Positions 1,416-64,000 of a stretch of DNA of 64,000 nt are shown here, piece after piece. A program made the position numbers and the translations under genes. This DNA is from an uncultured Candidatus Saccharibacteria bacterium (GTDB lineage: Bacteria; Patescibacteriota; Minisyncoccia; Phycocordibacterales; CSBR16-119): positions 25,671 through 89,670 of the forward strand of contig CAZLAD010000003.1 in NCBI GenBank assembly GCA_964557535.1, given 5' to 3'. The notes beneath the pieces were generated by a model. That model ran no database searches. It was not told the DNA's origin and worked only from the letters and a program-made list of their open reading frames with translations. Position 1 is the first letter of the stretch. The number at the start of each line of letters is the position of its first letter.

Positions 1416-3938
1416 ATGCGTAAAATAAAAAGGTTTTTTGCTCACCACAAGCACTTGTGGCTCAATGGACTTCTTGTGATTGTGACTTTGGGTGTTTTGG
1501 CGATTGGCAGTGTCGTTATTTGGGTTTCAACTCTAAAGGTTCCTGACTTCAAGGCTTTTGAAGAGCGTCGAATCCAGAGCTCAACAAAAATTTACGATCG
1601 AACTGGCGAAATCGTCTTGTACAACATTCACCGAGACAAGAAAAAAACAATTATTCCATTTGAAGAAATGGGTGAAAACATTGCCGAAGCAACAGTTGCT
1701 ATCGAAGACGAGACTTTCTACACAAACAAAGGTGTGAGTTTAAAATCAATCATTCGCGCAATTCTCGTAAATATTCGATCCGGATCTTATTCCCAAGGAG
1801 GCTCAACTATCACCCAACAAATTGTAAAGAACGCTCTTCTAACTACGGACAAGGCTATCTCGCGAAAGATCAAAGAAATATTTTTGGCTCTAAAGATCAA
1901 TAATGAAATGACCAAAGAAGAAATTCTGGAGGTATACCTAAACGAATCACCTTATGGCGGAAGCATCTACGGCATCAGCGAAGCATCGATGTCATTTTTT
2001 GCCAAAAAACCAATCGATCTGACGCTAGCAGAAGCGGCCTATCTAGCCGCTATTCCCCAAGCACCGACCCGTTATTCGCCTTATGGCTCAAATGTTCCAC
2101 TACTCGAAGCTCGTAAAAATCTCGTGCTCGACCAAATGGCAAAAAATGGTTTCATCACCGCCGAAGAACGAGACACGGCCAAATCTGAAGTTGTGACGTT
2201 TGTTGCCCAAGACAAACTCGGTATAAAAGCCCCGCATTTTGTCTTTTATGTCAAAGATTATCTAGAAGAAAAATACGGCGTAGCAACCGTAGAATCTGGT
2301 GGGTTAAAAATTATTTCGACTCTTGATTACGAACTCCAAGAAAAAGCCGAGGAAATAGTTTTGAAAAACGCCAAGGAAAACAACGAACTCTGGGACGCCG
2401 AGAACGCCTCGCTTGTTGCTATAGACCCAAAAACTGGTCAAATATTGACAATGGTTGGATCACGCGATTATTTTGACGAGGAAATAGACGGTAAATTCAA
2501 TATTGCTCTTGCAAAACGCCAGCCGGGTTCTAGTTTCAAGCCATTTATTTATGCCACGGCTTTTACCAAAGGCTTCACACCAAACTCTGTGCTTTTTGAT
2601 GTGCCGACAGAATTTCAATCGACTTGTGATCCATACGGTCGAGCCAAAACCGGCCCTCAATCAAATTGCTATAGTCCAAACAATTACGACGGCCTCTTTG
2701 TCGGACCGATAACTCTCCGAAATGCTTTGGCCCAATCGAGAAACGTGCCGTCAGTACAACTCCTTTATCTAACAAAAATCGCGGACTCATTAAAAGTCGC
2801 CAAAAACATGGGAATAAAAACCCTAGGAACAGCCGAAACCTACGGACTCACTCTCGTGCTTGGAGGCGGTGAAGTAACACTGCTTGATATGACGTCGGCC
2901 TATGGCGTATTTGCAAACGAGGGCATCCGCTACGAACCACAGGCTGTCCTGCGTGTAGAAGATTCGAAGGGTAATGTTTTGGAGGAATTTTCTCCAAAAG
3001 GCGGACAAAGAATTCTAGACGAAAACACCGCACGACTTATTTCTGATGTTTTGTCGGACAATGTCGCCCGAACGCCACTTTTTGGTGCCAACTCTTTTGC
3101 TTATTTCGGAGCAACTTCAGTTGCTGGCAAAACCGGTACCACCAACAACAACAAAGATGCTTGGATGATGGGCTATACGCCAAACATTGCTGTCGGTGTC
3201 TGGTCTGGTAACAACGACAACACACCGATGAAAAAAGGTTCTGCTATCTCTGGACGTCTATGGCGAGAATTTATGGATGTAGCGCTCAAGAAAATTCCAC
3301 ACGATTCATTTACGCCGGGAGAAATAAACGACGACCCAAGTCTAAAGCCGGTGCTTCGTGGTATTTGGCAAGGAGGTGAATCGGTGTTCATCGACACCAT
3401 CTCTGGTAAACTCGCAACCAACCTGACTCCAGAAGAAACCAAAAAAGAACTTGTGCCCGGCAATGTTCATTCGACACTTTATTGGATAGATCGAGAAAAC
3501 ATCCTAGGCCCCGCCCCAGGTCCACAAACCAATCAACAATACATAAACTGGGAAACCGCAACCCAAGACTGGTGGCAAAAAAACAAATACAAATACAATC
3601 TCATCAATGAATCAGAAATACCAGACGATTATGACGATGTTCACACCGAAGAAAATCAGCCGGAACTTGCCATACTTTTACCAAACGACACCGACGTCTA
3701 CGACGCGGGTGAGCCGATAGAAATAGAAATTGATTACGATACACATTTTGATGTTTTGTCGTTTGATGTGTTTGTAAACGACACATATCTTGGTACACGA
3801 ACGTCTGAACAATTTAATTTCTCGTTCATTCCACGAGACATTGAAAACATCTCGGATGTAAATGAACTAAAAATAATTCTCCGCGACGAAGTCTACAACA
3901 AAACCGAAGCTGTGGTGACGTTTAGAGTTGATCTCTAG
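1416..3938 (+). CDS. Class A penicillin-binding protein (bifunctional transglycosylase/transpeptidase, PBP1A-like)
   Basis: 840 aa. N-terminal TM, GT51 motifs ('EDETFY', 'GGSTITQQ'), transpeptidase 'SGSSFKPF' (SxxK) and 'KTGT' motifs. Confidence 0.9.
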   Translation: MRKIKRFFAHHKHLWLNGLLVIVTLGVLAIGSVVIWVSTLKVPDFKAFEERRIQSSTKIYDRTGEIVLYNIHRDKKKTIIPFEEMGENIAEATVAIEDETFYTNKGVSLKSIIRAILVNIRSGSYSQGGSTITQQIVKNALLTTDKAISRKIKEIFLALKINNEMTKEEILEVYLNESPYGGSIYGISEASMSFFAKKPIDLTLAEAAYLAAIPQAPTRYSPYGSNVPLLEARKNLVLDQMAKNGFITAEERDTAKSEVVTFVAQDKLGIKAPHFVFYVKDYLEEKYGVATVESGGLKIISTLDYELQEKAEEIVLKNAKENNELWDAENASLVAIDPKTGQILTMVGSRDYFDEEIDGKFNIALAKRQPGSSFKPFIYATAFTKGFTPNSVLFDVPTEFQSTCDPYGRAKTGPQSNCYSPNNYDGLFVGPITLRNALAQSRNVPSVQLLYLTKIADSLKVAKNMGIKTLGTAETYGLTLVLGGGEVTLLDMTSAYGVFANEGIRYEPQAVLRVEDSKGNVLEEFSPKGGQRILDENTARLISDVLSDNVARTPLFGANSFAYFGATSVAGKTGTTNNNKDAWMMGYTPNIAVGVWSGNNDNTPMKKGSAISGRLWREFMDVALKKIPHDSFTPGEINDDPSLKPVLRGIWQGGESVFIDTISGKLATNLTPEETKKELVPGNVHSTLYWIDRENILGPAPGPQTNQQYINWETATQDWWQKNKYKYNLINESEIPDDYDDVHTEENQPELAILLPNDTDVYDAGEPIEIEIDYDTHFDVLSFDVFVNDTYLGTRTSEQFNFSFIPRDIENISDVNELKIILRDEVYNKTEAVVTFRVDL

Positions 3939-3970
3939 CTAGCTTGTAGTGACTAGCTTTTAGCTTATAG
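3936..3970. repeat. Copy A of a 31-nt TAG-rich repeat (TAGCTTsTAGTGACTAGyTTTTAGCTTnTAG) that begins in the PBP stop codon
   Basis: Near-identical copies at 22466-22497 and 38290-38320; see findings. Confidence 0.6.
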
Positions 3971-3978
3971 AAAGAATA

Positions 3979-4015
3979 AACAAGAAACCCCCGGACTAGC
4001 CGGGGTTTTCTTGTT
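3979..4015. terminator. Bidirectional terminator hairpin (aacaagaaaCCCCCGGACTAGCCGGGGtttcttgtt)
   Basis: GC stem flanked by complementary A/T-rich arms, between the convergent PBP and SDR genes. Confidence 0.55.
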
Positions 4016-4789
4016 TTATTTTTTTAAATTTTGTAGATAACCTCCGTCAATTGGAATCACTTGGTTTTTTATTACGTCTTGATTCGTTAACCAGTAAATA
4101 ACTTCGGCGATTTCTTCTGGTTGTAGAATTTTACTTCCTGGTGAATCTTTTAAAATTTCATGAAATTTTTCACCAAAACCGTCTCGTGCAAGTTGTGTAT
4201 CTACAAGTCCCGGAGCAACACAGTTTACTATTAACTTTTCATTATTTTTACCTATATGGGCAACAGCGCTTTCTAGGTCTTTGTGAACACGTTTTTCAAG
4301 ATTGTCTTCTAATAGAAAAGTATATAACGAACTAATTGCTAGGGCGTGTGTCGCTTCGTCTTTTTGTCCTAAAACCTCCATAATTTCTACGCCACCAAGC
4401 TTTACGTTTTCGTATTCTTGCTCATATTCCAGTGTTTTATTTTGTGAAAATATGCCAGCGCAATGAATTATTTTATTGATTTTTTCTTTTTCTAATATTT
4501 TAAGTAATTCTTCTCTACCCTCTTTTGTTGAAATATCAACTTTTATAAAACGAGTATTTTCGAGCATCGAAACAGATTTTCCCTTTTCTTCATTTCTGCC
4601 AACCACAAAGACGTCGCTTTCATTTGCAAATCTTTTTGCAGTTTCTAGACCAATGCCGGAAGTTCCTCCAAGTATTAAAATTTTGTTTTTCTTATTTTCC
4701 ATTTTTGAAAAATCTAAGTTTAATAAATTTCTCAAAAGTAGGGCCGAGACTTGCTCGGCCGCACTTCTATGTGCTGCGCTCTTAACCAC
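4016..4789 (-). CDS. Short-chain dehydrogenase/reductase (SDR) family oxidoreductase
   Basis: 257 aa. N-terminal Rossmann motif 'ILILGGTSGIGLETAKRF'; length typical of the SDR family. Confidence 0.8.
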   Translation of the reverse strand: MVKSAAHRSAAEQVSALLLRNLLNLDFSKMENKKNKILILGGTSGIGLETAKRFANESDVFVVGRNEEKGKSVSMLENTRFIKVDISTKEGREELLKILEKEKINKIIHCAGIFSQNKTLEYEQEYENVKLGGVEIMEVLGQKDEATHALAISSLYTFLLEDNLEKRVHKDLESAVAHIGKNNEKLIVNCVAPGLVDTQLARDGFGEKFHEILKDSPGSKILQPEEIAEVIYWLTNQDVIKNQVIPIDGGYLQNLKK

Positions 4790-5183
4790 GAGCCACTTTT
4801 ACTCGATCATCAATGGCGTCACCGACTTTCAGGAGAACCCACAGCATGACGTACCATACGAATGGGGCAGGTACTGCCCAGATCATTCGGGAACCGAAGA
4901 CATGGTCGCCTATGGTAGTGACAGGAATCCCTTCAAGGTGACCGAAGGCAACGATGAACATGATGCCAATCCAAGCGATCGCCAGACTCGCGAGAACTGT
5001 GCTGATACCCTGCAGGCGCTGGCTTGTAATAGCAAGGCTGGCGCCCACGAGAGAGATCCCATTCAGGCATACGACCATACCGGTCGGCATTTTCCAAGAA
5101 GGATCAGTGTAGTATTCGAGACCGAAGCCGAGAAGCACAGCGGTCAACAAGGCATACAGGCAAGGGAGGGTTGTGCGAAACAT
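4782..5183 (-). CDS. Small hypothetical membrane protein (about 4 predicted TM helices), GC-rich
   Basis: Start placed at internal Met 'MFRTTLPCLYALLTAV...' (the ORF track extends it to 5417). Hydrophobic segments throughout. The local GC is higher than in the flanks. Confidence 0.4.
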   Translation of the reverse strand: MFRTTLPCLYALLTAVLLGFGLEYYTDPSWKMPTGMVVCLNGISLVGASLAITSQRLQGISTVLASLAIAWIGIMFIVAFGHLEGIPVTTIGDHVFGSRMIWAVPAPFVWYVMLWVLLKVGDAIDDRVKVARG

Positions 5184-5391
5184 GGTGAGGGGGTTGGTTA
5201 AATTTTTGTGAATGTACAGTCCACTCTTTGAAAACTCAAACTGCTTCAAGTTCTCAAAAGTGGGGGCGAAGCGTAGCCTCGCCCACTTTGGATTGGTCGT
5301 CTCGCGACGAGCTTCAGTTTCAGGGGATCCTACTCTCCCTAACCAGAGGCTAGACTGTCTGTGACTTTGGCTAGCTTTGTTTGGGTTTTTC

Positions 5392-6471
5392 CTACGAGTC
5401 GTAGTGCCATGCCGCATCGAACACTGGTACTAGGAACTGTTTGCCAGACAATCCCCTTTTCCGTGCCATGGTGACCGCCACCGCAAATCCCGCTCTTCCA
5501 GTCCGCCCGAACTCTGCCAGCACTTCATGGTGAAAGTCATCCCATTTCACAACCCATTCACTCTTGTCCGTTGGCTTAAAGCCGACGGCATTTATGAAGT
5601 TGTTGTCAACGAAATTACTTGTCACCAGCCCCACCAAATCAAGGTGGGGTATGCAAGCTTCGAGTGCAGGAAACTGAAAAATCGGATTAGCATAGGTGGT
5701 TCCGGGCAAGTCATGTCTCGCAATAACGGCCGGGTCAGCGATTCCGAAGATTCGCTGATATTTCCCAGAGGGTTCCTCAGCCGAAACTGGGAACTTTTTT
5801 CTGTAGGCGAGAGCAGACGAAGCCACTTCAAAACCTACAACCGTTATTTCGGGAAACAACAACTTGAACCCGGTCGCCATGGGAAGCGTTGTCGTGCCAT
5901 TGCCCAGGGGACAAATGACCACATCCGGCTTGATGCCGGCCTCAACAACTTCATCGACAAAGGGCCGGAACGCATCGATCGCTGCGCCGTTGATCGTCTC
6001 CCCTCTTCCGAATATATCGCCCATTGAGTGGCCAATATACCTGGTTCCGCGATTCTTCTTTTCGGCAAGAAATCTGCGGACATATTGAGGAAATCCGTTC
6101 ACGTACGCTTCGGCCGGAGTAAGAAGTAATTCTCCTCCAGCCGCTTCGATCGCGCGTTCACGAGCCTTCTCACCCCCAGCAGGAACAGCGATCTTGATTT
6201 GGTAACCAAGCGCTGTCGCTACTGCGGCTGCGGCACGTCCACCGCTCCCAGACGTGGTTTCGAGAAGCACATCACCCGGCTTGATAATGCCGAGACACTC
6301 TTTCAAGTAGATGAGCTTCAAGAACACGCGGGAGTAGTGGCACTCACCATATGGCAACTTGTAGTCGAGCTTGAAATGGTAGGTGTTACCTTCAAACTCG
6401 ATCGTTGTCACGGGAGAGTTGCGCACTTCGGTGAACATGTTCTCGTAGAGGTGTTTGCGATTCTGGTTCAT
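5392..6471 (-). CDS. Pyridoxal-phosphate-dependent enzyme, fold type II (cysteine synthase / tryptophan synthase beta superfamily)
   Basis: 359 aa. 'ETTSGSGGRAAAAVATALGYQIKIAVP' resembles the CysK-family nucleotide-binding stretch, and there is a glycine-rich 'GNGTTT' loop. GC-rich with G/C-ending codons. Confidence 0.7.
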   Translation of the reverse strand: MNQNRKHLYENMFTEVRNSPVTTIEFEGNTYHFKLDYKLPYGECHYSRVFLKLIYLKECLGIIKPGDVLLETTSGSGGRAAAAVATALGYQIKIAVPAGGEKARERAIEAAGGELLLTPAEAYVNGFPQYVRRFLAEKKNRGTRYIGHSMGDIFGRGETINGAAIDAFRPFVDEVVEAGIKPDVVICPLGNGTTTLPMATGFKLLFPEITVVGFEVASSALAYRKKFPVSAEEPSGKYQRIFGIADPAVIARHDLPGTTYANPIFQFPALEACIPHLDLVGLVTSNFVDNNFINAVGFKPTDKSEWVVKWDDFHHEVLAEFGRTGRAGFAVAVTMARKRGLSGKQFLVPVFDAAWHYDS

Positions 6472-6651
6472 GGTGGTTATGGTTTATGTGTTGGGCCCAA
6501 TCACACAAACCGACAACCTTTTCTGAAACTGCATTTTTCGAAGATCAAATTTCTAGACATATCATAACAGGTTTTGTCAAACTTGTCAATTTATATTTTA
6601 TATTTTGCAATAAAATCGCCGTAAAGACCTTATTTTATAAGTATAAAATAC

Positions 6652-6683
6652 TGTTGACAAACACTTTACAACTTTGCTAAAAT
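6652..6683 (+). promoter_or_regulatory. Sigma70-like promoter (TTGACA-18-TAAAAT) ending 6 nt before the TrmB start codon; likely a leaderless mRNA
   Basis: Hexamers read directly from the sequence. A direct repeat TTGTCAAAC-TTGTCAA lies upstream at 6570-6586. Confidence 0.4.
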
Positions 6684-7704: not shown

Positions 7705-8805
7705 TTATCTATTCATCGGCATTATTAGATAGAGAAAGCTTTTATCGCCATTACCTTTTATAACCATTGGACGATTTACTTCGTTCATTTCGAGGACAAC
7801 CGAATCTTCATTGATCGACTGGAAGCAATCTAAAATATATTTATGATTTAGGTTCATCTCTATCGCCTCACCCTCAAAAGCGCCGTCGACAAGTGTTTTG
7901 TTCTCGCCAACATCTTTGTTGAGGGCATAGACTTCAAGTTTTTTCGCTTTTGGATCGACTTTTATTTTTATCTGATTAAATTTATCCGAAAAAATATTTG
8001 CCAAACGAATTGATTCAATAAAATCTTTTTTTAGAAGGATTGCGCGAGTTTTGTATTCCTTTGGCACGATTTGACGATAGTCCGGAAACGATCCATTTAT
8101 AAGTCTAGAGGTTAAATAAAATCCTTGTAAAACAAAAGAAATTTGATTTTTATTATAATAAATTTTCATTTCACCTTTTACGTCCGACAATAATTTGATT
8201 ATCTCTAAAATATTTTTGAATGGAATAATCAAACCTTCTACGTCAGTTGGTTTTTTGGTCTTTATACTTTTTTCTGCTAAACGAAAAGAGTCTGTGGAAA
8301 CGAAAAACAGTTGGTTTTCGTTTGAATAAATATAAACACTTGCAATCTCTGGTTTTATGTCACTGACCGCCGAACTATAAAAAACGGCTTTTATTCCCTC
8401 TATAAATTTTTCAATCTCTATTTCAAAAGAATTTCCTTCTACTGTTGGAATAATCGGAAAATCTTCTGAGGAAATACTTTTTATCGTTACTGATGTTTTT
8501 TTATTGTTCAGGAAAAGGTTTTCTTCGATTTTTTCCATTTTTACAACTTTTTCGGAAGCACCTAAATTCATCAAGGTATTACTTATAACCTCTCCTGTAA
8601 CTACAACCTCTCCTTCTTTTTCTATTTTGGCAGGCAATTCAATCTCAAGTCCAAGAGAAAGGTTGGTTGAACGAATTTTTAAACTATTTCCAGAGGCAAT
8701 AAACAAGATAGACTTTAAACTCTCTAGACTAGAAGTCTTTCCCACGATTTTATCCGCTTTACTTACAGCCTCTCTTAGTTTATCTGTTGAACATTCTATC
8801 TTCAT
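7705..8805 (-). CDS. dnaN: DNA polymerase III beta subunit (sliding clamp)
   Basis: 366 aa with a three-domain clamp pattern, directly downstream of dnaA in the conserved dnaA-dnaN arrangement. Confidence 0.9.
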   Translation of the reverse strand: MKIECSTDKLREAVSKADKIVGKTSSLESLKSILFIASGNSLKIRSTNLSLGLEIELPAKIEKEGEVVVTGEVISNTLMNLGASEKVVKMEKIEENLFLNNKKTSVTIKSISSEDFPIIPTVEGNSFEIEIEKFIEGIKAVFYSSAVSDIKPEIASVYIYSNENQLFFVSTDSFRLAEKSIKTKKPTDVEGLIIPFKNILEIIKLLSDVKGEMKIYYNKNQISFVLQGFYLTSRLINGSFPDYRQIVPKEYKTRAILLKKDFIESIRLANIFSDKFNQIKIKVDPKAKKLEVYALNKDVGENKTLVDGAFEGEAIEMNLNHKYILDCFQSINEDSVVLEMNEVNRPMVIKGNGDKSFLYLIMPMNR

Positions 8806-9039
8806 ATATTTATTTACATCTTTATTCTATATAAAACCTACTATTACTATTAACCCTGTTGATAATGTGTAAAAGTCCGGAATATATTTACTGTTAACGT
8901 TTTTTTACTAAAATCAGTCGTGTAAAACCCTCTAACTTGTCTGAATTAATTTTTAATTTTTTGATCTCATTACTTAATTCAAAAACTTATTATTTTTTCT
9001 CCGCTATATATCCCCTGTTATTTACACATCTTATTAACA

Positions 9040-10395
9040 CTATTTAAACATAACTCGAATTTGTTCAAGGTCGCGGACAAGTTTTTGATCGGATTTTAGG
9101 TCGTTTTTAATTTTAAGACATGAGTGAATAACGGTCGTATGGTCTTTTCCACCAAGTTTCTGCCCTATTAAAGGATAAGAAATATTAAAATCCTCTCGGA
9201 GAATATACATAATTAGTTGGCGCGCACGAACAATTTCTTTTCTACGAGTTTTTTCGTAAATATTATCCTCTTCCACTTCATAAAACTCACTTATTGTCTT
9301 CACAACGTTTTGAATAGAGACGTTTTTACCGGGCTTAATGTTGTTTTTTATAAGTTTTTTGACTTCTATTACAGATAAATCTCGTTTTTTGAGCTGAATT
9401 TGGCAAATTACAGTATTTAGACTTCCTTCAAGTTCTCGGATAGATCCAGAAATAGAGGTGGCGATGTATTCGATAACCTCAGGTGATAAAGAAAGACCGT
9501 TTTCGTCCAATTTAGAGCGAATTATGGCCGTTCTCGACTCAATATCAGGCTCTGTGATATCAACTATCATTCCTTGAGCGAAACGAGTTCGTAGGCGGTC
9601 TTCTAGGCCTATTATTTGGTTGGGGTGTTTGTCTGAGGAGAAGATAATTTGCTTCTGATTCTCGTGAAGCGTGTTAAATAGGTGAAAAAGCTCTTCCTGA
9701 GTCTTTTCTTTGTTGGAAATAAACTGAACGTCGTCCATGATCAAGACGTCGTATTTACGATATTTTTGTTTAAATTCGTTTGGTTTGTTGTTTCGAAGAG
9801 AATTTACATAGTCGATGGCAAACTTCTCGAGAGGAATATAGTGAATTTGTTTGTTTGGAAATTTATCCTTAATCGCGTTTCCTATTGCTTGGATAAGGTG
9901 GGTTTTTCCGAGCCCTGTTGGACCATAGATAAAGAAAGGATTGTAGTTGTGGCCAGGGTTTTTGATTATTGATTGGGCGGCCGCGTGGGCAAGTTCGTTA
10001 AAAGATCCAACGATAAAAGAATCAAACGTGTAGCGAGGGTTTAGGTTGTCTTTCCTATCGACATAGAGGTTTTTTAGAGGGAGCTCGCCGACAACAAAGC
10101 CTTCGTTTTGGCTGATTTGCCCATCCTCAGGCTTTTTACTACTAGAAAGTTTTGCGATAACAAACTCCACACTACGAATGCCTTCAGAATAGTTTCGAAG
10201 AAGTCCTAAAATAGCGGTTTTGTGTTTGGTATTTAGCCAATCACGGACGAATTCGTTTGGTACAGAGATGTAAGCGGTACCGTTTTCTTGTTTTACTAAA
10301 TTTGTGTTTTTAAACCAGGTGACAAAGTTGGCTCGAGAGAGAGTCGATTCAATCTCATCCAAACAGCTTTCCCAAATTTGTTTATTATCAACCAT
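9040..10395 (-). CDS. dnaA: Chromosomal replication initiator DnaA
   Basis: 451 aa. Walker A 'GPTGLGKTHL', AAA+ core, and a C-terminal DnaA-box-binding helix region '...DHTTVIHS...'. Confidence 0.95.
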   Translation of the reverse strand: MVDNKQIWESCLDEIESTLSRANFVTWFKNTNLVKQENGTAYISVPNEFVRDWLNTKHKTAILGLLRNYSEGIRSVEFVIAKLSSSKKPEDGQISQNEGFVVGELPLKNLYVDRKDNLNPRYTFDSFIVGSFNELAHAAAQSIIKNPGHNYNPFFIYGPTGLGKTHLIQAIGNAIKDKFPNKQIHYIPLEKFAIDYVNSLRNNKPNEFKQKYRKYDVLIMDDVQFISNKEKTQEELFHLFNTLHENQKQIIFSSDKHPNQIIGLEDRLRTRFAQGMIVDITEPDIESRTAIIRSKLDENGLSLSPEVIEYIATSISGSIRELEGSLNTVICQIQLKKRDLSVIEVKKLIKNNIKPGKNVSIQNVVKTISEFYEVEEDNIYEKTRRKEIVRARQLIMYILREDFNISYPLIGQKLGGKDHTTVIHSCLKIKNDLKSDQKLVRDLEQIRVMFK

Positions 10396-10621
10396 GGTTT
10401 TTAAATTCTTGGCTAAAGACTAATGTTCGTTATTATAATTTATTTTTGTAATGTGTGGATAATTCAAAAATTGTGTACAACCTGTGAATTACTGTGGAAA
10501 AGTCGAAGGTTCTGAGGAGCTCGAAGGATGTGTGGAGAATTATACACGACTAATATTTTTCCGCGCAATATTTTCGCACCACACATTGATTTATTTTTAT
10601 GTCTAGTGTATACTTCCCCAC
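10396..10621. promoter_or_regulatory. Putative oriC / dnaA promoter region with a cluster of DnaA boxes
   Basis: Perfect TTATCCACA (complement of tgtggataa at 10454-10462). Near-consensus boxes follow: tgtgtacaa, tgtggaaaa, tgtggagaa, ccacacatt, ccccacatg. The region is AT-rich and lies between divergent dnaA and rpmH. A further TTATCAACA-like box sits at about 8857 in the dnaN-dnaA spacer. Confidence 0.7.
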
Positions 10622-10783
10622 ATGTCACGAACATATAATCCAAAAAAGAAAAAAAGAGCCAAGACTCATGGTTTCAGAGCTCGTTCCAAGACGACCTCAG
10701 GCAAAAAGGTTCTCCTTGCCCGCCGTCGCAAAGGACGCAAGAAGTTGACCATTTCTAAACCTCGCGTTAAGTCAGCCAAATAA
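10622..10783 (+). CDS. rpmH: 50S ribosomal protein L34
   Basis: 53 aa, '[53 protein letters not shown]'. Not in the ORF track because it is under 60 aa. Classical position upstream of rnpA. Confidence 0.85.
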
Positions 10784-10790
10784 TATTCTA

Positions 10791-11120
10791 ATGATCCCGA
10801 AGACTAATAGGATAAATCGGGAAGATTTCGAGAAAGTAATGAAAAAAGGCGGGTTTTTGAACTCGTCTTTTTTCACACTTAGATTCCTTAAAAATCCAAT
10901 AAATTCAACACATTTTAGTATTGTGGTGGCGAAAAAAGTCGCCAAAACCGCGGTTTTGAGGAATAAAATTCGAAGACGAGGTTACTCAATACTTAAAAAA
11001 TCCGAAAAAACATTGAAAAATAAGGGTTTTTTGATACTTTTTGCAAAAAAAGGTGTCGAAAAGGCTACTTTTAAAGCGGTTGAGGCAGATATTCTTAAAT
11101 TACTTGAAAAACTAAAATGA
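10791..11120 (+). CDS. rnpA: Ribonuclease P protein component
   Basis: 109 aa, basic, follows rpmH. Conserved RnpA-like 'F..V.K......AV.RN..RR' pattern. Confidence 0.85.
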
Positions 11121-11338
11121 AGTACTTATTTTTAGGGCTTATTTGGCTCTATCAACACACCTTTTCCCCTCTTTTCCGTCTCTTTAGGGTAAATTGCCGG
11201 TTTTACCCAACTTGTTCACACTATACCCGCGAAGCCTTTGAAAAACATGGATTTTTAAAGGGTTTTTGGCTTTCCGCCCGGCGAATTTCCAGATGTCACC
11301 CTTGGGGCGGATCTGGAATTGATGAGGTTCCGAAATAA
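11117..11338 (+). CDS. yidD: Membrane protein insertion efficiency factor YidD
   Basis: 73 aa. '[46 protein letters not shown]' is the YidD signature. Its start overlaps the rnpA stop (ATGA). Confidence 0.85.
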
Positions 11339-11374
11339 TTTTGAAATTAAGGGTTTTTAAGATAGAATCGAGAA

Positions 11375-12130
11375 ATGTTTAATACTATTTTCGTCGAGCC
11401 TTTATATAACACCCTTGTTTTTCTGGTAAATGTTGTGCCGTGGCACGACGTCGGTATTGCCATAATTGTTCTAACTATACTGGTTAAGCTTATTTTGGCC
11501 CCATTGCACGCCAAAGCCATCCGTGGGCAATTTCAAATGAAGGCCCTCGAGCCAAAGATTCGAGAAATCAAGAAAAATTATCCCGACAAACAAGAGCAGG
11601 CTAAAAAAACTTTTGAACTCTACAAAGAATACAAAATCTCTCCCCTCGCCGGATGTTTACCGATCCTTATCCAACTCCCAATCATTTTGGCTCTTTATCG
11701 AGTTTTCTTGGGCGGATTTAATTTTGACGCGACACCACTATATGGATTTATAAATCAACCAGAACAAGTAAAACTTTTGTTTCTTGGTATCCAAGACCTG
11801 ACACAAAAATCAATCATCTTTGCCATTCTTGCTGGAGCAACACAGTATCTACAAGTTCACTTTTCTGCCGCCAGAAATCCAGTCAACGTCGATCCAAACG
11901 ATACATCAATGGCGGCTAACATGACCAAGATGATGGGTAAGCAAATGAAATATTTTTTACCAGTATTTGTGGCGATCATTTCGTATCAAATTTCCGCCGC
12001 CATCGCGCTTTATTGGGCAGTCAACAACATTTTCACTACGGTTCAGGAATATTTAATTCACAAGAAAATGATCAAGCGTGGCCAGGTCACCGAGATTAAA
12101 AATTCCTTCGACCCCGCTTTGAATAAATAA
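11375..12130 (+). CDS. yidC: YidC/Oxa1-family membrane protein insertase (short Gram-positive/CPR type)
   Basis: 251 aa, multi-TM, in the conserved rnpA-yidD-yidC-jag synteny. Confidence 0.85.
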   Translation: MFNTIFVEPLYNTLVFLVNVVPWHDVGIAIIVLTILVKLILAPLHAKAIRGQFQMKALEPKIREIKKNYPDKQEQAKKTFELYKEYKISPLAGCLPILIQLPIILALYRVFLGGFNFDATPLYGFINQPEQVKLLFLGIQDLTQKSIIFAILAGATQYLQVHFSAARNPVNVDPNDTSMAANMTKMMGKQMKYFLPVFVAIISYQISAAIALYWAVNNIFTTVQEYLIHKKMIKRGQVTEIKNSFDPALNK

Positions 12131-12133
12131 AAT

Positions 12134-12592
12134 ATGAATGAAACTGATCTCAAAAATTTAATCCAAGAATTCCTCGAGAAAACCAGTTTCAGCTTCGTGG
12201 ATATCGATGTTTCTCTCGATATGGATGATGGATCTTATTGGATCGCTGTTAGAACGAATGACTCACGGCATTTGATTGGTCAAAACGGCGAAATGATTCA
12301 GACAATCAACCACTTGTTCAAAAGAATACTCGAGGCTCGTCACAAAGAGAACACCCCACGCGTAACAGTAGACATAAACGGTTACCAGAAAGAGCACATC
12401 AATAAAATAAAAACCACCGCGCACATGATGGCCGAACGCGCACGATTTTTCAAAAGTAAAATCGAGCTTGAGCCGATGAATCCATACGAGCGCCGGATTG
12501 TGCACGATTTTGTCTCTAAACATCCAGACCTTACCTCCGAATCAACTGGCACCGGCCCAACCAGACGCGTAGTTATTTTCTACAAACACTAG
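12134..12592 (+). CDS. jag: Jag/KhpB-like RNA-binding protein (KH + R3H domains)
   Basis: 152 aa. C-terminal R3H-like 'RRIVHDFVSKHPDLTSESTGTGPTRRVVI'. Immediately follows yidC. Confidence 0.8.
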   Translation: MNETDLKNLIQEFLEKTSFSFVDIDVSLDMDDGSYWIAVRTNDSRHLIGQNGEMIQTINHLFKRILEARHKENTPRVTVDINGYQKEHINKIKTTAHMMAERARFFKSKIELEPMNPYERRIVHDFVSKHPDLTSESTGTGPTRRVVIFYKH

Positions 12593-14758: not shown

Positions 14759-14858
14759 CTTGCGTCAAAAAACCCTTGCGATATAATGGTTTCAGACATA
14801 AATCGTTTTCGGGCGACATTATCAACCTAATTCTACGTACTACTTTCTACGTACTACG

Positions 14859-15141
14859 TACTAAAATTATGAATAAAGCAGCATTGGTAGAAAATGTTCA
14901 TGGCATGCTTGGTGGAACCAAAACTCAAGCCGAGCAGGTCGTTGATGGAATCTTTGATGCCATCACAGGAGAGATGAAGAAAGGCAGCGAAGTTTCAATC
15001 TCTGGATTTGGAATCTTCTCAGCCAAGATGAGAAAAGCTCGCACGGCGCGAAATCCTCGAACTGGCGAATCCGTATCTGTTCCGGCCCAGAAGGTGCCAA
15101 AATTCCGAGCTTCAAAAGCTTTGAAGGACGCGCTCAAATAA
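14859..15141 (+). CDS. hup: HU-family nucleoid-associated DNA-binding protein
   Basis: 94 aa. 'MNKAALVENVHGMLGGTKTQAEQVVDGIFDAI...FGIFSAKMRKARTARNPRTGESVSVPAQKVPKFRASKALKDAL' is the canonical HU/IHF fold signature. The N-terminal extension in the ORF track is rejected. Confidence 0.85.
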
Positions 15142-16713: not shown

Positions 16714-17112
16714 CTAAACCACGTTTTCCATCAGAACTACCTTCCCTGCTCGCCTTATTGGATCTATGTAAACTAGTGCTAGATCTACCTGGAAGTCCGC
16801 TTCGCCTAAATCTTTGGCCAAGCGGTAATATTCGACTGTTCGGACGAACCTCGCTATTTTCTTTGGATGCATGTTTTCCTCTGGTCGAAAGCCGGATGTT
16901 TCAGATGAAACATCGTCTAGTGTTACACGGGAAACGCTTTTCACTTCGATAAAGTGCCAATTTTTAGCTTTTTTCGCCACAATGTCTATTTCCCCACACT
17001 TTTGGGTGTAATTGGTCTCTATAATCTGGAAACCGTGTTTCATGAGAAACATAACGGCCAATTTCTCGCCAATTTCCCCGATCTTCTGGGTTTTTGAGGT
17101 AAAAGTTTTCAT
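16714..17112 (-). CDS. YraN/UPF0102-family endonuclease (restriction-endonuclease-like fold)
   Basis: 132 aa. 'GEIDIVAKK...HFIEVKS' matches the YraN core. Confidence 0.75.
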   Translation of the reverse strand: MKTFTSKTQKIGEIGEKLAVMFLMKHGFQIIETNYTQKCGEIDIVAKKAKNWHFIEVKSVSRVTLDDVSSETSGFRPEENMHPKKIARFVRTVEYYRLAKDLGEADFQVDLALVYIDPIRRAGKVVLMENVV

Positions 17113-17393
17113 CCCGCTGGTGATAGGAAGCGCTTCAGCCTAGCCCTGAGATAAGCTTTGCCTTGCCCAGATTTAAGTTGTAATTCCCTAGATTTTGCGT
17201 CTTCTTGATTTCGATAACACTCATAATATATAAGCTCAAATGGGCCTCTTCCCTTGGTGTGGAAACTCTTACCATGGTTATGTTGGTAAAAGCGCTTCCG
17301 TAGGTCACTTGTAAATCCGGTATACCAATTACCATCGGTTTTACTCCGAAGTACATAAGTGTAATAGAACTTAAAATCACTATCGGGATTCAT
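17109..17393 (-). CDS. GIY-YIG nuclease-domain protein
   Basis: 94 aa. 'YYTYVLRSKTDGNWYTGFTSDLRKRFYQHN' is the GIY-YIG signature. Overlaps the YraN start by 4 nt. Confidence 0.7.
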   Translation of the reverse strand: MNPDSDFKFYYTYVLRSKTDGNWYTGFTSDLRKRFYQHNHGKSFHTKGRGPFELIYYECYRNQEDAKSRELQLKSGQGKAYLRARLKRFLSPAG

Positions 17394-17779: not shown

Positions 17780-17856
17780 GCGACCCCGACTCGGCGACAA
17801 GCACTCGTTTCGCTCGTCTTGTATACCGCCTCCGTCTTTCGATTCTCTTATCGCGG
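17780..17856. repeat. Copy 1 of a 70-nt tRNA-linked repeat (GCGACCCCGACTCGGCGACAAGCACTCGTTTCGCTCGTCTTGTATACCGCCTCCGTCTTTCGATTC...)
   Basis: About 95% identical to 18143-18210. Ends in a degenerate inverted copy of the tRNA-Gly(GCC) 3' end. Confidence 0.6.
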
Positions 17857-17905
17857 TAAAACACAAAGGCCCCAACGCTAACGCGTCAGGACATTGTGTT
17901 TTATG

Positions 17906-18142: not shown

Positions 18143-18220
18143 GCGACCCCGACTCAGCGACAAGCACTCGCTTCGCTCGTCTTGTATACCGCCTCCGTCT
18201 TTCGAATCCCTCTGGGTGCA
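18143..18220. repeat. Copy 2 of the 70-nt tRNA-linked repeat; its last 20 nt (TTCGAATCCCTCTGGGTGCA) are an inverted copy of the tRNA-Arg 3' end 50 nt away
   Basis: Forms a 21-bp perfect inverted repeat with 18269-18290. Confidence 0.6.
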
Positions 18221-18268
18221 AAAACAATAATCATGAAAAGCTAGCGCTTTCCATTCCTTTGTTTTTTG

Positions 18269-21662: not shown

Positions 21663-22466
21663 TTATAGATCAACTTCTATTGAAATCGGGCAGTGATCTG
21701 ATCCGTAAATTTCTGAATGCGTCGTGAATTTTTTTATATTTTTCAAAATATTTAGCGAAGCGAAGAAGTAGTCAATACGCCAGCCGACGTTGCGCTCGCG
21801 CGCGGCGGATTTTTGATCCCAGTACGTGTAGACATCTTTTTTCGTTGGATTGAAATTTCTAAACACGTCGACGTAGCCGTCAGCGATAACTTCGTCTACC
21901 CATGCGCGTTCTTCGGGTAAAAATCCAACATGCGTTTCATTTTCTTTTGGTCTGGCGATATCAATTTCTGTATGTGCGACGTTCACATCACCGGTGAAAA
22001 TTATTCTCCTTGTCCCGCCGGAGCCTTTGGCGGAGGGGGATTGCCCTTCCTTACTTAATTTATTTACGTATTTCAAAAACGCGTCATAGAACTCGAGTTT
22101 GTATTCTAAACGTTCCGGCGCACCACCACCGTTGGGGAAGTAGCAGTTAATCAAGACGAAATCTTTGAAATGCGCCGTGACTGTCCGGCCCTCGTCGTCA
22201 TCGCCTGGCATGTCGATACCATACGTGACTTTTTCTGGCGGGACTTTGGTATAGATGGCTACACCACTATAACCTTTCTTTACTTTAGAACTAGAGAAAT
22301 ATGATGTGTATCCTTTTGGCTTCAAAATTTCATCGGAAAGTTGAGATGGCTCGGCTTTGGTTTCCTGGAGACATAGAATGTCGGGTTTCAAAGCCAAAAT
22401 TTCGGCAAAAGCGCCTTTTTTAAAATTCGCCCGGATGCCGTTTACGTTCCAACTAATGATTCGCAT
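21663..22466 (-). CDS. xth: Exodeoxyribonuclease III (AP endonuclease, EEP family)
   Basis: 267 aa. 'MRIISWNVNGIRA...LCLQETK' and a C-terminal 'GSDHCP' motif. Confidence 0.9.
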   Translation of the reverse strand: MRIISWNVNGIRANFKKGAFAEILALKPDILCLQETKAEPSQLSDEILKPKGYTSYFSSSKVKKGYSGVAIYTKVPPEKVTYGIDMPGDDDEGRTVTAHFKDFVLINCYFPNGGGAPERLEYKLEFYDAFLKYVNKLSKEGQSPSAKGSGGTRRIIFTGDVNVAHTEIDIARPKENETHVGFLPEERAWVDEVIADGYVDVFRNFNPTKKDVYTYWDQKSAARERNVGWRIDYFFASLNILKNIKKFTTHSEIYGSDHCPISIEVDL

Positions 22467-22497
22467 AGCTTCTAGTGACTAGTTTTTAGCTTCTAGC
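22466..22497. repeat. Copy B of the 31-nt TAG-rich repeat; abuts the xth start codon
   Basis: TAGCTTCTAGTGACTAGTTTTTAGCTTCTAG. Confidence 0.6.
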
Positions 22498-22626
22498 TTT
22501 ATGGATTATACAAGAAAAATTATTGCAAAATAAAGGTTTTAATGGCTTGACAATAGTAACTATATATGCTACTATTCAAATCGACAATCCTGTCACTCAA
22601 CCAGTTCCACCAAAACCAAAACCGTC

Positions 22627-23064
22627 ATGAAAAACACTGTGAGCAATTCCCAGACGACGCACATGCCGTACACCCTCTTCGTCACCCAATTGCGGGGTGT
22701 CAAGAATGCCATGTTCCTGAAGAAGGATGAGAAGATCACCACAGACCGGCTCTTCAAGTTCTTCTGTGACCGCATCGTCGGGACGATGAAGAAGGAGAAT
22801 GCCCAGAAGTTGCGCAACAGCTTCGCTGAGCCTCTCACGCGCACGGAGGCTGATGCGCAGTTCGTGAAGATGTGCATGAAAGAGGCCGTCCGGCGGTTCA
22901 TGCGTGAAGAGCTGAGGCCCGAAAAGCACCAAGCCTTCCTCCGCGATCTGGCAGAATGCCTGATGACGAGCTCCCACAGCAAGAACGTGGAGGTGATCAT
23001 GTTCGCGGACGAACTGAGGGGTCTACTCTCCGAGCGGTTCCCCGGCAGAAAGCTGGCCGCCTGA
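22627..23064 (+). CDS. Hypothetical protein, GC-rich (about 56%), with distinct codon usage
   Basis: 145 aa, no recognizable domain. Shares the upstream motif CACCAAAACCGTCAT with the gene at 23888. A terminator hairpin AGCCCTGACCTTGTCGGGGCTttgttgtttt follows at 23086-23116. Confidence 0.4.
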   Translation: MKNTVSNSQTTHMPYTLFVTQLRGVKNAMFLKKDEKITTDRLFKFFCDRIVGTMKKENAQKLRNSFAEPLTRTEADAQFVKMCMKEAVRRFMREELRPEKHQAFLRDLAECLMTSSHSKNVEVIMFADELRGLLSERFPGRKLAA

Positions 23065-23119: not shown

Positions 23120-23764
23120 TTAATTTTTCTGCAAAAGCGTGATAAGTAGAGTCTCTCTTTCTTTTTCTAAATAAAAAATTTCTTGTTTTACTATTTTAAA
23201 ATTTACGTCATAGACCTCGGATAATTCTTCGGGAGTAAAGAAGTGATAGAGTGCGCCATACTTTTCGTAATCACCACCCTCGGATTCTTTGGGACGGAAG
23301 TCATAGAATTGTACCGTGTCGCGTGACAAACTGACATTTAAAACATGCCCGCCGGATTTCAAAACTCTAGAAATTTCACTTTGATACTTTGGCCAATCTT
23401 CGCGATGTAGGTGTTGCAGGAGCCCGATATCGGTCACAGCGTCAAAACTCTCATCGGCAAATGATATGTCGAGCGCGTCGCCGACAATAAATTTTATTTT
23501 TCCTTCGAGGTTTTTTGCTTTGACTTCAGTGTTGTTTATTTCAACTAGATGATCGATATTTTCAAGACCGATGACGCGAAGACCCATTTCAGCCATAGCA
23601 AAGGCTAGTCGTCCGCGACCGGAGCCGAGATCAAGTGTGAGAGCGTTTCCGGGGATGAGTGCCAAGTAGCCGAGAATCTTGGACTGGTAAAATTTATCCG
23701 TCCAAATATCTGCGCCGGTATTGTAGGCAGTTTCGAAATAGTTTTTCTGATCATCGTAATTCAT
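23120..23764 (-). CDS. Class I SAM-dependent methyltransferase
   Basis: 214 aa. Motif I 'LDLGSGRGRLAFAMAEMGLRVIGLE'. Confidence 0.8.
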   Translation of the reverse strand: MNYDDQKNYFETAYNTGADIWTDKFYQSKILGYLALIPGNALTLDLGSGRGRLAFAMAEMGLRVIGLENIDHLVEINNTEVKAKNLEGKIKFIVGDALDISFADESFDAVTDIGLLQHLHREDWPKYQSEISRVLKSGGHVLNVSLSRDTVQFYDFRPKESEGGDYEKYGALYHFFTPEELSEVYDVNFKIVKQEIFYLEKERETLLITLLQKN

Positions 23765-23887
23765 TAGTTCAAGTATAGACGAGTAAGTCGTAAGTCGGAA
23801 GTCGCAAGTAGGGGATTGATTAATTTTCTAAAAGGAGTATAAAAGAAAGCGAAGACGAACCATTCACCACCAAAACCGTCATCAGCG

Positions 23888-24238
23888 ATGAACAAAACAG
23901 TGCATTCAGGAGGATACGCCACGATTGTGGTAAACAAATCAGGCGACGAAACTCGTCGGTTGATGCAAGAAGCAGGCTTGCTCGAGCGCATACGTCAACA
24001 GGGAATCGATTGCTATATCCGCGGAGATGGTGGCCTCTCTGATATGACAGCTGCTGAGCATCTGCATGTGCTACTCACAGGCAAACAGTTGGTCATTAAG
24101 CCGGGTCGTGTTCTGTGCCTGTTCTTACGTCGCTCTCATCTGAAGAACGGCGTGGAAGAAAAGCCTATCGAGACTTTTGCGGGAGAACTCGGCAAGCTGT
24201 GCGGGGTTCCCGAAGAAGTCGAAGAAGTCGCGAGGTGA
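23888..24238 (+). CDS. Hypothetical protein, GC-rich, putative paralog-context partner of 22627
   Basis: 116 aa. Same upstream motif (ACCACCAAAACCGTCATcagcgATG). G/C-ending codons. Confidence 0.35.
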   Translation: MNKTVHSGGYATIVVNKSGDETRRLMQEAGLLERIRQQGIDCYIRGDGGLSDMTAAEHLHVLLTGKQLVIKPGRVLCLFLRRSHLKNGVEEKPIETFAGELGKLCGVPEEVEEVAR

Positions 24239-26237: not shown

Positions 26238-26537
26238 ATGGAAGGAAATATGGAAAACAAGAGAACGGGTATTGATCTTGGTAATATCAAGCTGGTCTTG
26301 GAAGGGGAAATTATGAAATGGGAAGAGGGTAGCAATACTAGATTTATTCTTGAACAAATAAGTAGATATTTTAATGAAGCAGTTAATTCAGTTAACGATA
26401 AAGAAAATCTAAGCGTCGCCCTCAAAAAACTAAAAATTTACGAGAGCAATCTCGGAGAAAAATACAGAGACACAGCAGAGGAGAAGCAATATATTGAAAC
26501 TGTAAACCAGGCCATCGAACATTTTTCTAATTTATAA
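26238..26537 (+). CDS. Hypothetical protein
   Basis: 99 aa, no recognizable domain. Followed by the CCGAGGTTCGACCTC hairpin. Confidence 0.35.
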   Translation: MEGNMENKRTGIDLGNIKLVLEGEIMKWEEGSNTRFILEQISRYFNEAVNSVNDKENLSVALKKLKIYESNLGEKYRDTAEEKQYIETVNQAIEHFSNL

Positions 26538-26563
26538 CTACCGAGGTTCGACCTCTGTAAAAA

Positions 26564-27514
26564 TTAATTATTCAGATTTGATTTGGCGGCCAAGAGTCTG
26601 TCTCGCAATTCATAAACCGAAAGAGCCGTCATTATTTTTGTTTCAGGATCATAACTATTTATTTCAAAATGAAGATGCTTGCCATGTCCGGGGCGTGAAG
26701 CTGTCAGACCAGAGTTTCCAACTCTCGCTATTGGTTCTTTTGCTCGTATCAATGTTCCGGGTTTTGGCGTTACTTCTTTGAGATGGGCATATCGATAGAA
26801 TTCTTTTTTCTTTGGGTTGTAAATGATAACGGTGTTTCCTCCGCGCGCCGAACTGGTAGAAAGTATGTCGTCTTTGTCCCAACTATTTTCTGCTAAAACG
26901 ACGACGCCGTCCGTAAAGGATTCTACAACCGAGCCCTCCTCGGTAAATATGTCGATAGCATCTAGGTGGTTTGTATCAAGCCTTGCGCTTATGCCCAAAT
27001 CTTTTAGTGGTGGTACTTCAGTTTGCGTGAATATTTCGTTTTCGTAAAGTTTTTCTAAATACGAGAGATAACCATCACGTAACTGTGGCGTTATAAGTTT
27101 GTGGAGTTTCGCAATTTTTTCTTGCTGAGGAGTTTTGTTTTTTGCCTCTGTCATTTCCTGCATACCTTTGTCTGAGTAATAGAGGGCGTAGATTAGATAC
27201 GGTCTTGAAAAATACTTTTCATAATCACGACTTTCAATCACGGCTAGGTCGTTGTCAATTTCTGTTACAGGTTCTTTGGTTATCGATTCTACAACAGGCA
27301 CAGATTCTGGTTTGTGGGTGTCGGGAGCTTTTTTCTCGGGACTTTCCGCGGGAGACTCAGGTGATTCATTGGAATTTGTGAGACTTTCGGTTATACCTTT
27401 TCCTATAACCATACCAGCTCCGACCAAGCCAAGTTTCTGGAGAAATTCCCTCCGAGAACTAGATTCTGGTCGTGTCAATGACTCGTTTGGTTTTTTGCTG
27501 GGTCTTGATTCCAT
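26564..27514 (-). CDS. M23-family (LytM-like) metallopeptidase with a twin-arginine signal
   Basis: 316 aa. N-terminal 'SRREFLQKLGLVGAGMV' (Tat-like). C-terminal 'GNSGLTASRPGHGKHLHFEI' matches the HxH metal site of M23. Confidence 0.8.
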   Translation of the reverse strand: MESRPSKKPNESLTRPESSSRREFLQKLGLVGAGMVIGKGITESLTNSNESPESPAESPEKKAPDTHKPESVPVVESITKEPVTEIDNDLAVIESRDYEKYFSRPYLIYALYYSDKGMQEMTEAKNKTPQQEKIAKLHKLITPQLRDGYLSYLEKLYENEIFTQTEVPPLKDLGISARLDTNHLDAIDIFTEEGSVVESFTDGVVVLAENSWDKDDILSTSSARGGNTVIIYNPKKKEFYRYAHLKEVTPKPGTLIRAKEPIARVGNSGLTASRPGHGKHLHFEINSYDPETKIMTALSVYELRDRLLAAKSNLNN

Positions 27515-38320: not shown

Positions 38321-38374
38321 GAAAAGCAAGGCCCCGCTTGTCGCGGGGCCTTGGCGCTCCAGGTGCTGTCCGGA

Positions 38375-63954: not shown

Positions 63955-64000
63955 GGCAGGTTTGGGTTTTTTGTAGTTTATCATAGAAGTAGACGATTGT

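Follow-up and report, generated by a model that had tools for sequence, protein, structure and literature searches.

The DNA analysed here, in the following called the window, is a stretch of 64,000 nucleotides from an uncultured Candidatus Saccharibacteria bacterium (NCBI GenBank assembly GCA_964557535.1, contig CAZLAD010000003.1, positions 25,671 to 89,670 of the forward strand). Among its about 57 open reading frames (ORFs) is the replication origin region with dnaA, dnaN, rnpA, yidC, jag, rny and the gene for HU. A 31-nt repeat built of 7-nt units is present at three gene boundaries: downstream of PBP1A, at the start codon of xth and downstream of a 145-aa ORF (37855-38292). This 31-mer belongs, as a copied sequence, to a family of heptad arrays; related repeats have been reported in other bacteria without a mechanism. 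The closest relatives of the ThrRS, Xth and PBP1A proteins were found in metagenome-assembled genomes labelled Paceibacterota, Nomurabacteria or "Saccharibacteria" (Patescibacteria). A Shine-Dalgarno (SD)-like tetramer was present in two of 44 genes of the window. A strict -10 hexamer was located 6-7 nt before the start codon in 27 % of the genes; 2.4 % of random positions had one at a distance of 5-9 nt. The scarcity of SD sequences together with the spacing of the -10 box suggests that most mRNAs of this organism may be leaderless.

Three copies of a 31-nt repeat

Exact matches to the 31-nt pattern occurred three times, all on the plus strand (3940-3970, 22466-22496 and 38290-38320), with pairwise identities of 28-29 of 31 positions, and 100 shuffles of the window contained no match. 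An earlier reading of the letters alone (the sequence-only reading) was thus right in reporting three near-identical copies. Likeness between the copies is confined to the 31-mer, the flanks differ. Copies 1 and 3 are each situated between convergent genes. The partner of PBP1A (ORF 1416-3938) is a gene of the SDR family (4016-4789, minus strand), that of ORF 37855-38292 a 56-aa Cys-rich ORF (38375-38545, minus strand). Copy 2 is located between xth and a divergent 145-aa ORF (22627-23064) and overlaps the xth start codon on the opposite strand by one base, in agreement with the earlier description of a copy abutting this start. The first TAG of the 31-mer had been taken as the stop codon of the upstream gene in the two other cases. 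This is correct for ORF 37855-38292; the actual stop codon of PBP1A (3936-3938) lies four bases 5' of the 31-mer and forms a partial extra unit (TAGC). The coordinates of all arrays and associated signals are collected in Table 1.

The 31-mer consists of five tandem heptads, TAGCTTS / TAGTGAC / TAGYTTT / TAGCTTN / TAG, with the general form TAG(C)NNN. At 22466-22499, TRF reported a period of 7 with 4.9 copies, and in the whole window TAG-N4-TAG-N4-TAG was observed 13 times against 0.07 expected. Five in-phase TAGs are present in each copy, at offsets 0, 7, 14, 21 and 28, and close all three forward frames, as had been noticed from the letters; in copies 2 and 3 the reverse strand is likewise closed in all frames. 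The 31-mer has no inverted-repeat structure and appears unstructured (fold -5.2 kcal/mol, z = 0.38). An assembly or vector artefact, named earlier as a possible explanation, or an engineered sequence was ruled out, because the same copies recur in three independent assemblies (Logan SRR12487045, Logan SRR12022136 and ENA ERZ4208449); copy 3 was also identical in the independent contig L090.

Table 1. Heptad arrays and adjoining signals in the window, and inverted array pairs in one Uhrbacteria locus
Feature	Position	Strand	Description
Copy 1, family-A array	3936-3970	+	PBP1A stop TAG (3936-3938), C, then TAGCTTG TAGTGAC TAGCTTT TAGCTTA TAG
Terminator hairpin, bidirectional	3978-4016		common to PBP1A (+) and convergent SDR gene 4016-4789 (-); ancestral, outside the repeat
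Family-B array, HU leader	14833-14863	+	CTACGTA CTACTTT CTACGTA CTACGTA CTA; ends 5 nt before HU ATG (14869)
Copy 2	22466-22500	-	minus strand reads AAAGCTAGAAGCTAAAAACTAGTCACTAGAAGCTA-TG; occupies xth leader between -10 box and ATG
xth -10 box TATAAT	22505-22510	-	38 nt before ATG, against 6 nt in array-less L087
Family-C array	23783-23809	-	minus strand ACTTGCG ACTTCCG ACTTACG ACTTAC; 4 nt upstream of TATACT -10 box of methyltransferase gene 23120-23764
Copy 3	38290-38320	+	TAGCTTC TAGTGAC TAGCTTT TAGCTTG TAG; first TAG is the stop of 145-aa ORF 37855-38292
GC hairpin	38327-38353		between copy 3 and ORF 38375-38545 (-); T-tract on minus strand only
Family-B array, 3' of ORF 56695-58434	58432-58462	+	TAAGTAC GAGTACG TAGTACA TAGCGCG TAG; opens with the TAA stop of the ORF
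Degenerate complementary arm	58469-58500	+	CTACGCG CTATGTC ... CTACGAA CTACGCA; pairs with 58432-58462
Inverted array pairs, locus L030	1627-1706, 9900-9965, 15155-15305, 18700-18778, 20788-20861		Uhrbacteria

The claim that each copy is followed by a strong GC hairpin terminator held in part. Copy 1 precedes a terminator hairpin that serves both strands, the hairpin behind copy 3 has a T-tract for the minus strand only, and no terminator-like site was detected at copy 2. The hairpins 3' of copies 1 and 3, each 6-7 nt downstream of its array, are unrelated in sequence. The PBP1A hairpin (gaaaaccccggacYagccggggttttc) is present without the motif in three relatives (L083, L084 and L085) with PBP1A proteins 83-85 % identical. 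Since the hairpin is ancestral at PBP1A, missing at copy 2 and unrelated between copies 1 and 3, the repeated unit is the 31-mer only. The terminator is not part of the repeat, and in none of the three copies was a hairpin with U-tract a component of the repeated unit.

Heptad arrays, their polarity and their units

Further arrays of the same period are present in the window; the units of all these arrays, including the 31-mer, are TAGCTTN, TAGTGAC, TAGTACG and AAGTCGN. The array in the HU leader has its TAG-N4 register on the minus strand, and the family-C array upstream of the methyltransferase gene, built of ACTTNCG units, has an nAG register (AAGTCGN) on the plus strand. The array behind ORF 56695-58434 and its complementary arm form a predicted composite long hairpin (58432-58500) of -31.6 kcal/mol (z = -4.96). 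In every array listed, the strand running 5'->3' away from the abutting gene reads nAG-N4, a count of about 10 independent events that were scored partly by eye. Arrays in TAG sense stand 3' of PBP1A, ORF 37855-38292, ORF 56695-58434 and ruvB of the related contig L089; arrays in CTA sense stand 5' of xth (four lineages), HU, ruvC and yebC of L089, rny of L088 and the methyltransferase gene. The arrays are placed between the coding sequence and its own signal, either stop codon and terminator or -10 box and ATG, or directly upstream of the -10 box. Their length varies little, from 3.6 to 5.3 units (4-5 units, 28-35 nt), with the exception of the xth array of L080 with about three units.

The 3' copies may be viewed as trans-acting antisense elements: the 3' untranslated regions of PBP1A and ORF 37855-38292 would mask the start of xth, that of ORF 56695-58434 would pair with the HU leader. 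The predicted duplexes reach the start codon with -41.4, -44.9 and -34.9 kcal/mol, against about -11 kcal/mol for shuffled sequences. An unstructured seed followed by a hairpin is the arrangement of small RNAs derived from 3' untranslated regions, and two independent families have each a 3' and a 5' member. However, complementarity arises automatically between inverted copies of one repeat. In L088 the second copy runs in the sense of the xth leader, at a site 5' of a -10 box, and is therefore no antisense partner. The hairpin of copy 3 lacks a U-tract on the plus strand. We regard an antisense function as improbable.

The arrays may also be read as double-stranded DNA. The omega protein, a ribbon-helix-helix repressor, binds runs of 7-bp heptads, and its operators are at least two consecutive heptads overlapping a promoter. 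Consecutive heptads were located at a promoter in copy 2 and in the methyltransferase array, not in copies 1 and 3, which stand at 3' ends. If the arrays were operators for such a heptad-binding repressor, acting by promoter occlusion or as a roadblock, the site of copy 2 between -10 box and ATG of xth would be suitable; the family-C array and the rny array of L088 occupy classical operator positions 1-6 bp upstream of the -10 box, and a reader at DNA level would see both orientations. Against this stand the 3' copies 1 and 3 and the array at 58432, which have no promoter to control, and the orientation rule, which would be left unexplained unless the block is polar. The window ORFs also include no ribbon-helix-helix gene. 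An operator function seems rather unlikely.

In the units of family A (47 units in 10 arrays), T was conserved in 46 of 47, A in 45, G in all 47 and C in 39, while positions 5-7 were nearly free; orthologues and copies of the same genome were counted as separate rows, which inflates the position-specific conservation. As the triplet, TAG is used almost throughout and not any stop codon. Such a conservation pattern is not expected from fresh slippage or uniform decay. Sister arrays without stop codons, AAGTCGN in the window and AAGCTGG in an Uhrbacteria locus, follow the same rules of position and orientation. Because stop codons are lacking in arrays of like placement and the triplet of the family is specifically TAG, the closure of all frames is probably a side effect.

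The sequence-only reading had proposed a portable cassette of an all-frame translational stop and a terminator, which would guard against read-through. TAG does occur in all three frames, and the array supplies the stop codon of ORF 37855-38292, ORF 56695-58434 and ruvB in L089. This proposal was not borne out: the terminator lies outside the repeat, with an ancestral hairpin at PBP1A, none at copy 2 and one with a T-tract only on the minus strand at copy 3, and copy 2 and the HU array are located upstream of start codons. The families AAGTCGN and AAGCTGG obey the same rules without any stop, and the conserved triplet is specifically TAG (45-47 of 47 units). A stop cassette would predict arrays confined to 3' ends and an interchangeable use of TAA, TGA and TAG, and the arrays showed neither. 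We consider it highly improbable.

Gain and loss in relatives and the question of inserted DNA

Copy 1 was absent at PBP1A in four relatives (L083-L086). Where the PBP1A proteins are 83-85 % identical, the gene ends with TAA, followed by an A-rich spacer and the same terminator hairpin, without the motif. Because the relatives have this terminator without the motif, copy 1 is a recent insertion specific to this lineage; about 35 nt have entered between stop codon and ancestral terminator. Copy 3 was missing 3' of the orthologous gene in L004 and L008, and the HU array was missing from the HU leaders of L086, L087 and L088, with a conserved HU promoter in L086 and L087. A family-C unit was also found upstream of a 67-aa gene in L084 and L086; the orthologous site at the methyltransferase gene had a different unit in L080 and none in L087.

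The xth leader has another history. Its array occurs in four lineages, the window species, L081, L080 and L088, with position and period kept and a drifting sequence: TATAAT ... AGCTAAC GGCCAAT GGCTAAA AGCTACC CT-ATG in L081, three units in L080, and AGCTATA AGCTAAC CGCTATA CGCTAAA AGCT-ATG in L088. A recent insertion at xth was therefore ruled out. L087 has the plain leaderless form TATAAT-taaggc-ATG without an array. The xth leader array is an old resident, and those at PBP1A and ORF 37855-38292 are recent copies of the same composite sequence in opposite orientation. Under every reading the array gives xth a predicted leader of 38 nt in a genome where leaders are probably rare. The number of units varies between species, from three to five at xth. 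It was unchanged between strains at 97.5 % (L079) and 99 % (L090) nucleotide identity; L079, of the same species, had unchanged xth and HU arrays and a methyltransferase array with one base different.

The genome behind L088 and L089 has its own homogenised version of the family at several genes. Its rny array, upstream of the rny -10 box, is identical in 29 of 31 positions to the xth array of the same genome (L088); in L089, one array abuts the ATG of ruvC, one precedes yebC and one contains the ruvB stop codon. In the set of 90 fetched loci, four TAGs in phase occurred only in the window species, in this genome and in the unrelated contig L002. L002 was the single JGI match, a 14-nt tandem duplication on a non-coding, microsatellite-rich contig unlike the window, and was taken as chance. 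The motif had no match in 185,579 species representatives and none in viral contigs. Arrays of the 31-mer's family were found in one sub-clade of Paceibacteria-like Patescibacteria. Heptad arrays of other sequence were seen more widely: the Uhrbacteria locus L030 has five inverted array pairs (AAGCGGG, GAAGCTG, AGTCRYG) around terminators and between divergent genes, and similar inverted pairs, often around terminators, occur in L027 (Peribacteria) and L069 (Chloroflexia); all three loci were inspected by eye only.

Gain and loss of this kind may reflect a selfish or neutral dispersed microsatellite that originates by slippage, is copied or homogenised between loci by gene conversion or some copy-paste route and survives only in the few dispensable bases that separate genes from their signals, without a function of its own. 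The gains of copy 1, copy 3 and the HU array are specific to a lineage, L087 has no xth array, the copies within a genome are near-identical and the motif is absent from the species representatives. Seven was also the commonest short period in all fetched loci, in relatives and non-relatives, a count that agrees with Mrazek (2007) in the summary given by PMC4679880. But the conservation is position-specific, with TAG kept and the last three positions free, the array length is narrow, the outward orientation is consistent over about 10 independent arrays and the xth array has been kept in four lineages. Variability in copy number of the slippage type was not seen in the strains L079 and L090, and the lack of unit-number polymorphism at 97.5-99 % identity speaks against a neutral repeat. 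We regard this explanation as possible, if doubtful.

The sequence-only reading had named the border of inserted DNA as one possibility and had noted GC-rich islets near two copies. These islets are real, with 56.6 % GC at 22627-23064 and 50.9 % at 38375-38545 against 42.7 % in the window. The latter is the small Cys-rich gene, which L004 and L005 also carry next to ThrRS; it was ruled out as foreign DNA. The 145-aa gene 22627-23064 has no counterpart in the slot between xth and the methyltransferase gene of the relatives. It shares the leader CACCAAAACCGTC(ATG) with another GC-rich small gene, 23888-24238 (leaders at 22615-22628 and 23868-23882); a third copy of the 13-mer from this leader is located inside the SDR gene (4171-4183). 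The stretch from PBP1A to TrmB/dnaN (4016-6680) contained different genes in each of the relatives L083, L084 and L089 and none in L086; it is a hot spot of gene gain and loss beside the origin.

Arrays might be the ends or attachment sites of inserted gene cassettes, as recombination sites or terminal inverted repeats, with solo copies as remnants. One example is found in L089, where a 23S_rRNA_IVP (Avd-like) gene (1416-1865) between ruvB and yebC is exactly flanked by inverted family-A arrays, the left one of which supplies the ruvB stop codon; ruvB and yebC are adjacent in L083 and L086. Copy 2 borders the 56.6 % GC gene absent from the relatives, the gene slots next to PBP1A and xth are different in each relative, and inverted array pairs occur in L030, L027 and L069. 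In the window, however, no partner arrays stand at the far borders of the neighbouring gene slots, no transposase or integrase is encoded and the 31-mer lacks an inverted-repeat structure. Between the variable DNA and copy 1, copy 2 or the HU array there is always a conserved signal that belongs to the gene itself, a terminator or a promoter (-10 box), so that a role as cassette border cannot be general. The findings on the earlier suggestion are mixed. As an account of the arrays, cassette ends are improbable.

Several other candidates were tried and rejected. The motif is unlike the palindromic 16-mer of a parS centromere site (TGTTNCACGTGAAACA). The arrays have no single orientation relative to the replichores, as a replication-oriented signal would have. 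Although ComEC is present, copies of the motif are far too sparse and its sequence too species-specific for a DNA uptake sequence. Avoidance or clustering of restriction sites was rejected with observed/expected ratios of 0.98-1.11 for AGCT, CTAG, TAGC and GCTA.

Some features of the window are recorded here in their own right. The origin region (7705-12592) comprises dnaN (7705-8805, minus strand), dnaA (9040-10395, minus strand), rnpA, yidC and jag, and the cumulative GC skew is lowest at around 9 kb. Three parS-like 16-mers with two mismatches each (TGTTTCAGATGAAACA, TGTTACACGGGAAACG and TGTTTCATGAGAAACA) form a separate cluster at 16897-17051, inside the UPF0102 gene and at a distance of about 6 kb from the origin. 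ComEC (52604-54097) adjoins a metallo-beta-lactamase-fold protein, consistent with natural DNA uptake in the group. The long inverted repeat CCCGATAGTGATCGCGGTC ... GACCGCGACCTATCACTATCGGG (38637-38714) extends precisely to the start codon of ThrRS and is perhaps an autoregulatory leader; it had no Rfam match. A third copy of ATCACTATCGGGAT is located at the start of a GIY-YIG gene (17376-17389). The same terminator-like hairpin AACTACCGAGGTTCGACCTCGGTAGTT stands 3' of two unrelated genes, for TyrRS (127-169) and an M23 peptidase (26529-26571). A 105-nt direct repeat (17780-17884 / 18143-18247), 80 % identical with an identical core of 34 nt, adjoins tRNA-Gly and tRNA-Arg. ORF 56695-58434 shares repeats of the type GC(M/T)D..ATNYN..DDGSC with a 2650-aa ORF (40501-48453; repeats at 57352-57585 and 41014-41088). 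A 1111-aa Gly-rich ORF is located at 58563-61898, and at 62968-63984 a match just above cutoff to Por_Secre_tail, the sorting domain of type IX secretion, was unexpected in this phylum.

Known heptamer repeats and a candidate binding pad

Heptamers are the commonest long simple repeats in prokaryotes, according to the summary of Mrazek (2007) in PMC4679880. The TAACTGA heptamer direct repeats of marine Beggiatoaceae, cyanobacteria and Bacteroidetes have a patchy phylogenetic distribution and an unexplained function (MacGregor 2015, PMC4679880). They comprise 2-6 units in intergenic regions, mostly a few bases upstream of starts, in one orientation and at genes without an SD sequence (PMC4679880). 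Copy 2 and the HU array, both in CTA sense, resemble them as direct tandem units of period 7 in intergenic DNA close to the start codons of SD-poor genes. The window arrays differ in a unit TAG(C)NNN with three variable positions instead of a fixed heptamer and in a composite 31-mer copied almost unchanged between loci, in a host of the leaderless type among the Patescibacteria. They also stand after stop codons in the opposite orientation, a position not mentioned for TAACTGA repeats in the part of the paper considered.

Heptamer repeats of Nostoc are located near promoters or overlap the first bases of the start codon. With these, the 7-nt long simple sequence repeats (LSSR) and the short tandemly repeated repetitive (STRR) sequences of cyanobacteria, the window arrays have in common that tandem heptanucleotides are dispersed in non-coding DNA. 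Unlike LSSR and STRR, they have a near-fixed number of 4-5 units, no change of copy number between strains and units that differ at set positions; their units are not TAACTGA and presumably not those of STRR. REP/BIME, Correia and ERIC elements are small palindromic intergenic repeats at gene ends, often between convergent genes and beside terminators. The inverted array pairs of L030, L027, L069 and of the window at 58432-58500 are similar to such units. In contrast to REP sequences and miniature inverted-repeat transposable elements (MITE), the 31-mer is not palindromic and does not fold, and the arms of the pairs are tandem heptads. No RAYT or transposase was seen among the window ORFs, which cover a part of the genome. 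TAG at both ends of the 31-mer is readable as a 3-nt target duplication, yet is also simply the repeat unit. No paper on heptad repeats in Patescibacteria was found.

The closest functional analogue is HutP of Bacillus subtilis, which recognises XAG triplets with a 4-nt spacing next to the stem of a terminator, A and G being the bases read (PMC2425495). In the hut terminator, two XAG-rich sites of three triplets each flank the G-C stem with a linker of 12-17 nt, and the genes under control follow the terminator on the same strand (PMC2425495). The window copies likewise present five UAG at 7-nt spacing, where at least three XAG are called for; in the 3' copies these stand in a predicted single-stranded stretch past the stop codon and 5' of a G-C stem. 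The window copies have one run of five, no XAG run in or after the stem and, in copy 2, no hairpin. The genes that follow copies 1 and 3 are convergent, one half of the arrays has the reverse sense, and the about 57 window ORFs include no hutP. The resemblance to HutP is a lead and not a proof of membership.

We favour, with a probability of about 0.35, the reading that the arrays are strand-specific recognition pads for a candidate oligomeric protein that binds in a 7-nt register. This comes closest to one of the possibilities named in the sequence-only reading, a site for a DNA- or RNA-binding factor. The conserved triplet with free spacers, the fixed number of 4-5 units, the polarity and the stability between strains argue for recognition unit by unit and not for neutral slippage, and nAG with four spacer bases, single-stranded, after a stop codon and before a G-C hairpin is the code of HutP. 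The protein would bind single-stranded nucleic acid with one nAG per subunit, and it would read the pads in the direction out of the gene, either as RNA or as displaced non-template strand. At the 3' copies, a pad 6-7 nt before the hairpin could modulate termination or the stability of the 3' end. At xth, the array gives a predicted leader of 38 nt to a gene that would otherwise be leaderless, and reading would take place on the opposite strand.

Several points weigh against such a pad. Neither HutP nor TRAP nor another candidate factor was found among the window ORFs, the window being a part of the genome; a ribbon-helix-helix protein, a transposase, an integrase and a reverse transcriptase were likewise absent from these about 57 ORFs. 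The general RNA binders encoded are a cold-shock protein (at about 29475-29669), Jag/KhpB and RNase Y, and Rfam reported tRNAs only. The 5' arrays have their nAG register on the antisense strand, and a reading at RNA level would need antisense or divergent transcripts. Copies 1 and 3 precede convergent genes, where antitermination would serve no evident end, and a single XAG site stands against the two that flank the hut stem. A selfish or neutral repeat would equally be expected to be gained and lost rapidly and to have near-identical copies. The polarity count comprises about 10 independent events, scored partly by eye, and the rows of the unit table are not all independent.

A wider version of the binding pad is unlikely as a whole: a gene-boundary code in Patescibacteria, perhaps also in other phyla with inverted array pairs around terminators, in which outward nAG-N4 pads of 4-5 heptads would be bound in a 7-nt register by a putative ring or filament protein and mark the exit of the transcript. 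Such pads would spread by copy-paste and become homogenised in each genome.

New in comparison to the known heptamer repeats are the outward nAG-N4 polarity, the near-constant number of 4-5 units and the position-specific conservation within the units, together with clear gain, loss and copying between close relatives in a host where any leader is exceptional. The question of function thereby becomes testable, by a protein that tracks the arrays across Paceibacteria genomes and by binding to a defined 31-mer. If a reader protein exists, gene ends would have a new level of control in this branch of the bacteria, which is very large and poorly understood. If there is none, the arrays would be a clean example of how a tiny repeat in a compact genome enters the only bases that are free and provides a leaderless gene with a leader.

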